Source: Escherichia coli
GTDB taxonomy: Bacteria; Pseudomonadota; Gammaproteobacteria; Enterobacterales; Enterobacteriaceae
Direction: 5' to 3' (one strand)
Length of the DNA stretch: 64,000 nucleotides
Assembly: GCF_044324875.1 (NCBI RefSeq)
Contig: NZ_CP172185.1
In this document: positions 12,882 through 44,800 of the stretch, piece after piece
Layout of the letters: each line of letters starts with the position of its first letter
Numbering within the stretch: position 1 is the first letter of the stretch
Program-made: the position numbers and the translations under genes
The notes under the pieces: generated by a model
Database searches by the model: none
The model's input: the letters and a program-made list of their open reading frames with translations, nothing else
Told to the model about the DNA's origin: nothing

Positions 12882-13165
12882 CAATTTATTCCAGTTATTG
12901 CAGGGGTATTATTACGCCAGCCTGGAATAAAGCCCCCTACAAAAGGGGATAAAAGTGTGATGTAAGTCAGATAAATGTCTTCTTCGGCTGGACAATCATT
13001 CCTTTTATTCCACGTTTCGCTTATCCTAGCTGAAGCGTTTCAGTCGATTAAATGTTCGACAATTAACCAATCAGTCGCAGTTTGCGACAGGTAAGGTTTC
13101 CCCGGACGATTTGCTGGATTACTCTGTCTGGCAAATTTGCTCAGGGAAAACCTTGCAGGAGATCT

Positions 13166-16758: not shown

Positions 16759-16858
16759 CTGATGCGCTACGCTTATCAGGCCTACACGTATCCTGCAATA
16801 TATTGAATTCGCAGGTTTTTGTAGGCCGGATAAGGCGTTCACGCCGCATCCGGCATGA
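16759..16858. repeat. REP/BIME cluster (two REP units in opposite orientation)
   Basis: gcctgatgcgctacgcttatcaggcctac and gtaggccggataaggcgttcacgccgcatccggca. Confidence 0.8.
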
Positions 16859-28518: not shown

Positions 28519-28645
28519 GTATATACTCGTCATACTTCAAGTTGCATGTGCTGCGTCTGCGTTCGCTCACCCCAGTCACTTACTTCTGTAAGCTCCTGGG
28601 GATTCACTCTCTTGTCGCCTTCCTGCAACTCGAATTATTTAGAGT
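28519..28645. repeat. ERIC (IRU) element in the argP–rpiA intergenic region
   Basis: Reverse-complement copy of the element at 15463–15592, with a few mismatches. Confidence 0.85.
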
Positions 28646-28684
28646 ATAATGCGTGTGAAATTTCATACCACAGGCGAAACGATC

Positions 28685-29344
28685 ATGACGCAGGATGAAT
28701 TGAAAAAAGCAGTAGGATGGGCGGCACTTCAGTATGTTCAGCCCGGCACCATTGTTGGTGTAGGTACAGGTTCCACCGCCGCACACTTTATTGACGCGCT
28801 CGGCACGATGAAAGGCCAGATTGAAGGGGCCGTTTCCAGTTCAGATGCTTCCACTGAAAAACTGAAAAGCCTCGGCATTCACGTTTTTGATCTCAACGAA
28901 GTCGACAGCCTTGGCATCTACGTTGATGGCGCAGATGAAATCAACGGCCACATGCAAATGATTAAAGGCGGCGGCGCGGCGCTGACCCGTGAAAAAATCA
29001 TTGCTTCGGTTGCAGAAAAATTTATCTGTATTGCCGACGCCTCCAAGCAGGTTGATATTCTGGGCAAATTCCCGCTGCCAGTAGAAGTTATCCCGATGGC
29101 ACGTAGTGCAGTGGCGCGCCAGCTGGTGAAACTGGGCGGTCGTCCGGAATACCGCCAGGGCGTGGTGACCGATAACGGCAACGTGATCCTCGACGTCCAC
29201 GGCATGGAAATCCTTGACCCGATAGCGATGGAAAACGCCATAAATGCGATTCCTGGCGTGGTGACTGTTGGCTTGTTTGCTAACCGTGGCGCGGACGTTG
29301 CGCTGATTGGCACACCTGACGGTGTCAAAACCATTGTGAAATGA
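28685..29344 (+). CDS. rpiA: Ribose-5-phosphate isomerase A
   Basis: 219 aa starting [31 protein letters not shown]. Confidence 0.97.
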
Positions 29345-29599
29345 TCTGACGGGGGAACCTCCCCCGTTAAAAAAATTCTCTTCATTAAATTTGGTGACAT
29401 GTGTCACGTTTTTACCTGGCTATTGTCGATTGCTCTAAATAAATCTTCTAAACCAGCATATTCATCCAAGAAATACCTTTGCGTGATATTTCCTCAACAT
29501 CGCGACGCAAACGTTCATATTGCCGCAATATTATTTTTTGATATGTTGAAAGGCGGATGCAAATCCGCACACAACATTTCAAAAGACAGGATTGGGTAA

Positions 29600-30832
29600 A
29601 TGGCAAAGGTATCGCTGGAGAAAGACAAGATTAAGTTTCTGCTGGTTGAAGGCGTGCACCAAAAGGCGCTTGAAAGCCTTCGTGCAGCGGGTTACACCAA
29701 CATCGAATTTCACAAAGGCGCGCTGGATGATGAACAATTAAAAGAATCCATCCGCGATGCCCACTTCATCGGCCTGCGATCCCGTACCCATCTGACTGAA
29801 GACGTGATCAACGCCGCAGAAAAACTGGTCGCTATTGGCTGTTTCTGTATCGGAACAAACCAGGTTGATCTGGATGCGGCGGCAAAACGCGGGATCCCGG
29901 TATTTAACGCACCGTTCTCAAATACGCGCTCTGTTGCGGAGCTGGTGATTGGCGAACTGCTGCTGCTATTGCGCGGCGTGCCGGAAGCCAATGCTAAAGC
30001 GCACCGTGGCGTGTGGAACAAACTGGCGGCGGGTTCTTTTGAAGCGCGCGGCAAAAAGCTGGGTATCATCGGCTACGGTCATATTGGTACGCAATTGGGC
30101 ATTCTGGCTGAATCGCTGGGAATGTATGTTTACTTTTATGATATTGAAAACAAACTGCCGCTGGGCAACGCCACTCAGGTACAGCATCTTTCTGACCTGC
30201 TGAATATGAGCGATGTGGTGAGTCTGCATGTACCAGAGAATCCGTCCACCAAAAATATGATGGGCGCGAAAGAGATTTCACTAATGAAGCCCGGCTCGCT
30301 GCTGATTAATGCTTCGCGCGGTACTGTGGTGGATATTCCGGCGCTGTGTGACGCGCTGGCGAGCAAACATCTGGCGGGGGCGGCAATCGACGTATTCCCG
30401 ACGGAACCGGCGACCAACAGCGATCCATTTACCTCTCCGCTGTGTGAATTCGACAACGTCCTTCTGACGCCACACATCGGCGGTTCGACTCAGGAAGCGC
30501 AGGAGAATATCGGCCTGGAAGTTGCAGGTAAATTGATCAAGTATTCTGACAATGGCTCAACGCTCTCTGCAGTGAACTTCCCGGAAGTCTCGCTGCCACT
30601 GCACGGTGGGCGTCGTCTGATGCACATCCACGAAAACCGTCCGGGCGTGCTAACTGCGCTGAACAAAATCTTCGCCGAGCAGGGCGTCAACATCGCTGCC
30701 CAGTATCTGCAAACCTCTGCGCAAATGGGTTACGTAGTTATTGATATTGAAGCTGATGAAGACGTTGCCGAAAAGGCGCTGCAGGCAATGAAAGCTATTC
30801 CGGGTACCATTCGCGCCCGTCTGCTGTACTAA
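29600..30832 (+). CDS. serA: D-3-phosphoglycerate dehydrogenase
   Basis: 410 aa; full-length match to SerA including the C-terminal ACT domain. Confidence 0.97.
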   Translation: MAKVSLEKDKIKFLLVEGVHQKALESLRAAGYTNIEFHKGALDDEQLKESIRDAHFIGLRSRTHLTEDVINAAEKLVAIGCFCIGTNQVDLDAAAKRGIPVFNAPFSNTRSVAELVIGELLLLLRGVPEANAKAHRGVWNKLAAGSFEARGKKLGIIGYGHIGTQLGILAESLGMYVYFYDIENKLPLGNATQVQHLSDLLNMSDVVSLHVPENPSTKNMMGAKEISLMKPGSLLINASRGTVVDIPALCDALASKHLAGAAIDVFPTEPATNSDPFTSPLCEFDNVLLTPHIGGSTQEAQENIGLEVAGKLIKYSDNGSTLSAVNFPEVSLPLHGGRRLMHIHENRPGVLTALNKIFAEQGVNIAAQYLQTSAQMGYVVIDIEADEDVAEKALQAMKAIPGTIRARLLY

Positions 30833-30853
30833 TTCCCCTTCTCTGAAAATCAA

Positions 30854-30883
30854 CGGGCAGGTCACTGACTTGCCCGTTTTTTT
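30854..30883 (+). terminator. serA intrinsic terminator
   Basis: cgggcag...ctgcccg hairpin followed by a T7 tract. Confidence 0.75.
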
Positions 30884-30989
30884 ATCGCTTCTCCACACCG
30901 TTGCCGCGTTGTGCATTCGGCTTTGCGAGTCTGCTCCAGAAAATAAATCAAAGTCAGATCAATGCGTTGTGTTTATTTAATGGGGATTT

Positions 30990-31140
30990 ACGATGGCAGG
31001 GCAGCATGGTGCTGTAACGGTAAAGCCCTCACCGAAGCGAGGGCTTGAAGGAGAAGGGTTATGATGCGACTTGTCATCATACTGATTGTACTGTTACTCA
31101 TAAGTTTCCCAGCTTATTAACAGTCAGTCTCAGGGGAGGA
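30990..31140 (-). ncRNA. sibC: SibC antisense sRNA (antitoxin of ibsC); boundaries approximate
   Basis: Expected from the position between serA and ygfA and the presence of the ibsC ORF on the opposite strand; ends not determined from sequence. Confidence 0.4.
31061..31120 (+). CDS. ibsC: Type I toxin IbsC (19-aa hydrophobic peptide)
   Basis: ATGATGCGACTTGTCATC... encodes MMRLVIILIVLLLISFPAY; followed by a gggaggaGTCATcctccc hairpin. Confidence 0.8.
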   Translation: MMRLVIILIVLLLISFPAY

Positions 31141-31220
31141 GTCATCCTCCCTTACCCTTACTCACTAAATTAGGTTAAAGAATCAACGATGTCAATCAGG
31201 GCGATGCAGGTGTGTCGCCC

Positions 31221-31843: not shown

Positions 31844-32027
31844 GGAATCTCCGAGATGCCGCCGCAGGCTGTAACCCTTGAACCCTTGGTTCAAGGTGAA
31901 TGTGTCGTCGCAGTTTTAAGGCTTCTCGGACGGACCGAGCATGCTCACCAACCGCGGAGCGCCACATTCTTGTGGTATGAAATATCGGCTCAGGGGACTG
32001 GCCCGCTTGCGAACATCTCAGAGAAAT
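31844..32027 (-). ncRNA. ssrS: 6S RNA
   Basis: Reverse complement matches 6S RNA (5'-ATTTCTCTGAGATGTTCGCAAGCGGGCCAGTCCCCTGAGCC...GGAGATTCC-3'); immediately upstream of fau as in the ssrS-ygfA operon. Confidence 0.9.
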
Positions 32028-36895: not shown

Positions 36896-36989
36896 AAATT
36901 TCTCCTCTGTTGTTTATTTGATACCCATCACACTTTCATCTCCCGGTTTTTTCGCCGGGAGATTTTCCTCATTTGAAATAAACTAATTT

Positions 36990-44624: not shown

Positions 44625-44800
44625 TGTGCATTAGTAGGCCTGATAAGACGCGTCAGCGTCGCATCAGGCATCGGATCGCAACTGCCGGATGCGGCGTGAA
44701 CGCCTTATCCGGCCTACGGGCCGCGTCCTTGGTGTGATAAAGGCACCAAATCCCAGGCATGATAAGACGCGTCAACGTCGCATCAGGCAATAGTCGCCGG
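44625..44800. repeat. BIME cluster (three to four REP units)
   Basis: Repeated gcctgataagacgcgtca(g/a)cgtcgcatcaggc and gccggatgcggcgtgaacgccttatccggcctac units. Confidence 0.85.

Follow-up and report, generated by a model that had tools for sequence, protein, structure and literature searches.

The described systems closest to the locus analysed here include the class I promoters, such as lac P1, in which CRP is placed at -61.5 on a two-fold symmetric 22-bp site. A different arrangement is found at papBA, which is reportedly regulated by CAP at -215.5 together with Lrp, and a further one in the control region of the gcvTHP operon, in which CRP, Lrp, GcvA and PurR are brought together; Lrp also regulates gcvTHP. 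This operon belongs to the same serine, glycine and one-carbon pathway as serA, the first gene of serine synthesis, which determines how much carbon enters serine, glycine and one-carbon metabolism. For this reason, the control of serA by carbon (CRP), amino-acid (Lrp) and nitrogen (Nac) status makes it a small model of signal integration. The gene is reported to have two promoters, on which Lrp has opposite effects: it activates P1, whose start lies 45 bp before the ATG, and represses P2, whose start lies a further 92 bp upstream and which receives help from CRP.

Both the control of serA by CRP and the binding of CRP at the site described below are already known, on the basis of a Footprint-seq preprint, of genomic SELEX and of the literature cited by Tian 2021. 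In particular, genomic SELEX recovered serA among the known CRP targets (Shimada 2011, PMC3105977) and, more recently, purified CRP was found to bind ttGGTGAcatgtgTCACGctt at K-12 coordinate 3058610, assigned to the gene serA, with a Kd of ~4.8 nM (PMC12871828 Table 1; Wang, Stringer and Wade, bioRxiv 2026; Footprint-seq). The preprint labels the site as novel, a term used there for sites over 500 bp away from all of the 308 that had been described or predicted before, and the RegulonDB-derived lists do not carry a CRP site at the serA position (PMC12871828). The direction of this control is disputed: in Tian 2021, the activation of serA by CRP is credited to Yang 2002, Zheng 2004 and Shimada 2011, whereas serA expression is found to behave as CRP-repressed in vivo, against these earlier reports. 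In the supplement of a Crp ChIP-exo study, whose 'start site' column holds the end of the gene in the case of minus-strand units, serA is one of 699 promoters with signal, and most such peaks track RNA polymerase; the evidence for occupancy in living cells is weak. The identity of the CRP site is therefore already published and the site is no new kind of element; what is new here, compared with the literature examined, is its conservation across the order and the fixing of its distance from P1 within 2 bp, and the long-reported effect of CRP on serA is now tied to one defined 22-bp site.

The window analysed is a stretch of 64,000 nucleotides of an Escherichia coli genome (contig NZ_CP172185.1), whose features around serA are collected in Table 1. 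The encoded SerA protein is 100% identical to K-12 SerA, the 255-bp rpiA-serA spacer shares 99% identity with its K-12 counterpart, and a 2.3-kb stretch around the repeat matches rpiA and serA, at an identity of 95-99%, in 5,421 of the 5,426 E. coli genomes that are complete. The interval 28600-30900 reaches at most ~98.7% identity among the full-length matches listed from the 5,426 complete genomes, with 4 records counted at 99% or more, and the 50-bp stretch around the CRP site is 100% identical to that of O157:H7 strains; judging from these matches, the window seems to come from a lineage, or from a recombinant, poorly represented among complete genomes. Elsewhere in the window, Rfam matches were found for SIB RNA (the sibC/ibsC toxin-antitoxin locus, 31045-31195), 6S RNA (ssrS, 31844-32027), naRNA4 on both strands (44637-44714) and the ES036 sRNA (16778-16820), and no Rfam family was found at the locus of the repeat.

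Table 1. Features of the rpiA-serA region (positions in the window)
Feature	Position	Strand	Basis
rpiA coding sequence, upstream neighbour	28685-29344	+	NCBIfam equivalog NF001924, E 3.8e-97; RefSeq annotation
GC-rich hairpin after rpiA, likely rpiA terminator or 3'-end structure, separate from the repeat	29347-29369	+	RNA fold, -17.1 kcal/mol, z -4.4
A/T flank AAATTT, directly upstream of the left half-site	29387-29392	.	~0.8-1.7 bits/column, 44-species alignment
22-bp CRP-type site tttGGTGAcatgtgTCACGttt, centred between positions 29400 and 29401	29390-29411	.	Motif, position weight matrix, K-12 match, conservation
Inverted repeat, arms GTGACA/TGTCAC, TG centre	29394-29407	.	Sequence reading
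Second conserved island CAGCATATTCATCCA, Lrp-consensus-like (12/15 against YAGHAWATTWTDCTR)	29454-29468	+	Alignment, consensus match
serA promoter P1: -35 TTGCCG (29520-29525), 16-bp spacer, TGn extended -10 TATGTT (29542-29547)	29520-29547	+	Sequence and conservation
serA coding sequence, regulated gene	29600-30832	+	NCBIfam NF008759, E 2.3e-212

The initial annotation had described a perfect 14-bp palindrome at 29393-29408, which it placed ~200 bp before the start of serA and immediately after rpiA. The placement is confirmed, since the repeat begins 50 bp past the rpiA stop codon (29344) and its centre lies 199.5 bp upstream of the serA ATG (29600). An inverted repeat is also present within the span indicated, which, however, includes one extra G on each side of it. 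The perfect symmetry must instead be abandoned: the central TG is not self-complementary and only the two 6-bp arms are symmetric. The 14-mer GTGACATGTGTCAC (reverse complement GTGACACATGTCAC) occurs only once in the window and was never matched in 100 shuffles, a result that tests one exact string and not the class of repeats to which it belongs. As for the class, 21 inverted repeats with 6+6 arms and a 2-nt spacer are found in the window, against 18.2 +/- 4.1 expected from dinucleotide shuffles (they are 210 with spacers of 0-8), so that the palindrome by itself is at chance level; the excess over chance comes from the CRP matrix score and from the conservation in other genomes, and not from palindromy.

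The repeat is embedded in a 22-mer of the TGTGA-N6-TCACA type, whose half-sites read GGTGA-catgtg-TCACG and match TGTGA/TCACA at 8 of 10 positions, both outermost bases being mismatched. The K-12 coordinate bound by CRP corresponds to position 29400, and the 16-bp core is identical in K-12 and in the window, with a single difference in the flanks, t in the window for c at 29409. The A/T flank listed in Table 1 recalls the A/T-rich flanks carried by strong CRP sites (Footprint-seq preprint, PMC12871828). A position weight matrix was derived from the 39 other high-affinity sites in Table 1 of the same preprint (PMC12871828), the serA site being excluded. On this matrix the serA 20-mer scores 15.1 bits (training median 16.9, minimum 9.5) and ranks third among ~64,000 window positions; three matches of at least 15.1 bits were observed against 0.21 expected, and none of 100 shuffles reached three. 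The loose consensus TGTGA-N6-TCACA with two mismatches is instead at chance in the window, 28 matches being found against 26.5 expected. The second strongest match to the matrix, TATTTGATACCCATCACACT (36915-36934, 16.5 bits), lies just after ubiI, ~420 bp upstream of gcvT, and is presumably the far-upstream CRP site of the gcvTHP operon. The strongest, AGTGTGATGTAAGTCAGATA (12954-12973, 16.8 bits), is located in the gap that separates a yggC-like kinase gene from epd, ~200 bp before the start of the latter, and epd is a listed CRP target (Shimada 2011, PMC3105977).

Conservation was examined by using SerA as a probe to collect serA loci from 80 species and by aligning the 450 bp upstream of each. 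A CRP-type site was found at the same aligned position in 44 species of Enterobacterales, whose genera include Escherichia, Citrobacter, Enterobacter, Kluyvera, Pantoea, Erwinia, Yersinia, Serratia, Rahnella, Edwardsiella, Budvicia, Proteus, Xenorhabdus and Providencia. In Pectobacterium and Brenneria one half-site is degraded, in Photorhabdus the site is weakened, and in Vibrio, Pasteurellaceae, Shewanella and Pseudoalteromonas no CRP-type site is present in the aligned 450-bp regions upstream of serA. The core positions, GTGA (29394-29397) and TCAC (29404-29407), reach 1.87 bits per column (43-44 species) against a regional mean of 0.69, a value that equals in practice that of the P1 -10 (1.88) and exceeds that of the P1 -35 (1.60). 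The six central bases average 1.09 bits; four of them vary, giving hexamers such as CATGTG, CTTGTG, CTTATG, TATATA and others, and positions 29400 and 29402 keep their T, while the spacer between the half-sites is 6 bp long in every aligned species. Fixed half-sites, fixed spacer length and a largely free spacer sequence are the pattern of conservation expected for contacts with a protein. Furthermore, the outer base of the left half-site is G or A, and never the consensus T, in all 44 species, suggesting that affinity is kept below its maximum.

The site lies 194.5-227.5 bp from the ATG in 43 of the 44 species and 315.5 bp in one Pantoea, and its distance from the rpiA stop codon ranges from 55.5 to 153.5 bp. 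The interval between the site centre and the P1 -10 instead measures 141.5 bp in 20 species, 142.5 bp in a further 21 and 143.5 bp in a single one, that is, in 42 of 44 it stays within 2 bp while the flanking distances vary by tens of base pairs. The half-sites and their distance from P1 are held by selection across Enterobacterales.

In the window, the -10 of P1 lies in the context TGaTATGTT and its start falls at ~29554-29555, from which the CRP centre is at -153.5 or -154.5. If P2 starts 92 bp upstream of P1, at 29462-29463, the same centre would fall at -61.5 or -62.5, the classical class I position. The alignment of 44 species, however, shows no conserved -10-like hexamer at +49.5 from the site centre, the class I distance. 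A sigma-70 consensus scan of 29300-29650 found no promoter, P1 included, and is too strict to help since even P1 was missed. The start site of serA is also absent from the tables of Kim 2012, SMRT-Cappable-seq, Mendoza-Vargas 2009 and Cappable-seq. The hexamer CATATT (29457-29462) was considered as the -10 of P2 and judged less likely, because the conserved positions extend beyond it and fit the Lrp consensus better; a -10 there would also set CRP at -68.5, an unfavourable phase that was counted against this assignment.

Downstream of P1, in the stretch 29553-29603, the serA leader is a known GcvB target region, and a hairpin, GCGGAT-GCAA-ATCCGC, lies at the extreme 5' end of the P1 transcript. 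RNA 3' ends are listed at K-12 coordinates 3058437 (29573 in the window, 27 nt before the ATG) and 3058407 (29603) (Adams 2021), and suggest premature termination or processing in the leader.

Several elements resembling the sites of other regulators are found in the same spacer. The conserved island between the CRP site and P1 begins, in 30 of the 44 species, at 53.5 bp from the centre of the CRP site, and 12-14 of its 15 positions match the Lrp consensus YAGHAWATTWTDCTR. Matches of this kind number 66 in the window against 71 expected; five of them fall within 176 bp (29368-29543), on both sides of the CRP site, a cluster that would fit an extended Lrp-binding region. None with three or fewer mismatches overlaps 29390-29411, the nearest ones being at 29368-29382 and 29436-29450, and serA is not mentioned in the Lrp bioRxiv paper. 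Direct reading of 29390-29411 likewise shows no Nac-type motif, ATA-N9-TAT. At 29517-29531 there is a palindrome superior to that of the initial annotation, ATATTGC-C-GCAATAT, with 7+7 arms, which overlaps the P1 -35 TTGCCG; it matches the Nac/LysR-type pattern ATA-N9-TAT and occurs in Escherichia, Citrobacter and Enterobacter, but not in distant genera. It is likely to be the place of the published repression of serA by Nac. Just upstream of the P1 -35, ACGCAAACGTT (29505-29515) is conserved across Enterobacterales as GCAA(A/T)CGTT, at ~1.4-1.7 bits per column, and equals one half of the PurR operator consensus.

Taken together, these data support a genuine regulatory site. The proposal of the initial annotation, a site for a dimeric transcription factor with CRP among the named candidates, proves correct: the motif score, the published binding of CRP in K-12 and the conservation of the half-sites agree, and of the suggested regulators CRP matches the repeat while Lrp and Nac do not. 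The condition under which that proposal would have fallen, the absence of both a regulator motif and conservation, is contradicted on both points: the weight-matrix scan proposed there gives a regulator motif that ranks third in 64 kb, and the half-sites are conserved. We consider it very probable, with a probability of about 0.85, that the repeat is the core of a CRP binding site feeding carbon status into the transcription of serA. In the mechanism that we propose, a cAMP-CRP dimer would occupy the half-sites GGTGA and TCACG and bend the DNA, and would activate the upstream promoter P2 through a class I contact with the C-terminal domain of the RNA polymerase alpha subunit; Lrp, bound between the CRP site and P1, would shut P2 and drive P1, so that the contribution of CRP would be greatest at low Lrp occupancy. 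There is good support for the binding of cAMP-CRP, the action of which may be of class I at P2 or architectural at P1.

Alternative explanations concern both how CRP acts and whether the repeat is a CRP site at all. With regard to the former, the site could act mainly on P1, remotely and as an architectural partner of Lrp, the activation of P2 not being its main role: CRP bound at -153.5 or -154.5 would bend the DNA and help or hinder the Lrp-DNA complex that activates P1, depending on the helical phase. This is a real alternative, because no -10 is conserved at the class I distance and the conservation is tied to P1, whose elements are the sole strongly conserved promoter elements downstream of the site; we regard it as possible, though rather doubtful. 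The spacing from the P1 -10, fixed amid variable flanking distances, and the clustering of Lrp-like matches near the site and P1 and in the interval that separates them (5 of 66 in 176 bp) argue for it, papBA, where CAP at -215.5 reportedly acts with Lrp, offers a precedent, and contradictory reports of activation and repression could be reconciled. However, the argument proceeds from the conservation of spacing, and a fixed spacing could equally reflect an interval filled by Lrp sites and by the core of P2, with no room for indels; moreover, the Lrp consensus is degenerate and its matches in the window are at chance expectation (66 against 71). Earlier literature, as cited in Tian 2021, also credits the effect of CRP to activation. 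In a still more tentative form, which we consider unlikely, the CRP site, the Lrp-like block and P1 would make up a single rigid module of ~150 bp, without indels throughout the order Enterobacterales, in which CRP, bound at -153.5, would act on P1 in a phase-dependent manner through Lrp-wrapped DNA, much as CAP reportedly does at pap, and P2 activation would be of lesser importance or confined to Escherichia. If this were true, serA would represent a conserved non-fimbrial case of remote cooperation or antagonism between CRP and Lrp, and it could be explained why CRP has been reported as both activator and repressor of the gene.

As for the nature of the repeat, a hairpin followed by a U-run, acting as intrinsic or back-up terminator of rpiA, appears very improbable. 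A short inverted repeat followed by five T's is what the locus shares with Rho-independent terminators; in fact, GTGAC-ATGT-GTCAC with the adjoining GTTTTTACCT is picked out as terminator-like by a consensus scan, and the repeat is 50 bp downstream of the rpiA stop codon. Nevertheless, the predicted stem is weak (-6.4 kcal/mol, z -1.7, with 11 of 200 shuffles folding as well), the T-run is poorly conserved (0.57 bits per column, replaced by ATAAGC or ACAACG in other genera), and the primary 3' end of rpiA was mapped by Term-seq at K-12 3058638 (Adams et al. 2021), which is 29372 in the window, 22 nt before the repeat and not at 29410-29415, no 3' end being listed at the repeat. In the stretch 29347-29382, the much stronger GC hairpin that follows rpiA is itself followed by TTAAAAAAATT, an A-run and not a U-run, inside which the Term-seq 3' end falls; its tail is not that of a canonical intrinsic terminator. 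Least probable, in our opinion, is that the repeat arose as a palindrome by chance or serves another regulator (Lrp, Nac or an unknown dimer), its likeness to CRP sites being a coincidence. Palindromes of such geometry do occur at chance frequency, as does the loose CRP consensus with two mismatches, but a coincidence would hardly account for the deep conservation of the CRP-contact positions while four of six central bases vary, nor for the nanomolar affinity with which purified CRP binds this very coordinate; in addition, no Lrp match overlaps the repeat and the ATA-N9-TAT motif sits elsewhere, at 29517-29531.

The reading of the repeat as a CRP site, with its conservation and fixed spacing, provides a concrete handle on the conflicting reports about the sign of CRP control on serA and can be placed among the systems described so far. 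With the class I promoters exemplified by lac P1, the locus shares the symmetric 22-bp site, the TGTGA-N6-TCACA half-sites, the A/T-rich flanks and the location upstream of the core promoter, at the same class I position if P2 starts 92 bp upstream of P1. The outermost bases of its half-sites are instead non-consensus (G...G), and its main promoter, P1, lies 153.5 bp away. The K-12 serA site reported by Footprint-seq is at the same locus and has the same 16-bp core, and was described in vitro, without mechanism or conservation (PMC12871828); the window belongs to an E. coli lineage other than that of K-12. The gcvTHP control region, known here from a matrix match, belongs to a different operon and has a different CRP distance, and resembles serA in its pathway and in its strong CRP-type site located far upstream. 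Unlike papBA, serA has no Dam GATC switch and no phase variation, and the distance of CRP from the promoter differs; the likeness between them, which is suggested by the conservation of spacing, lies in the presence of CRP and Lrp on one region, with CRP far upstream of a promoter activated by Lrp and at a distance that is apparently constrained.
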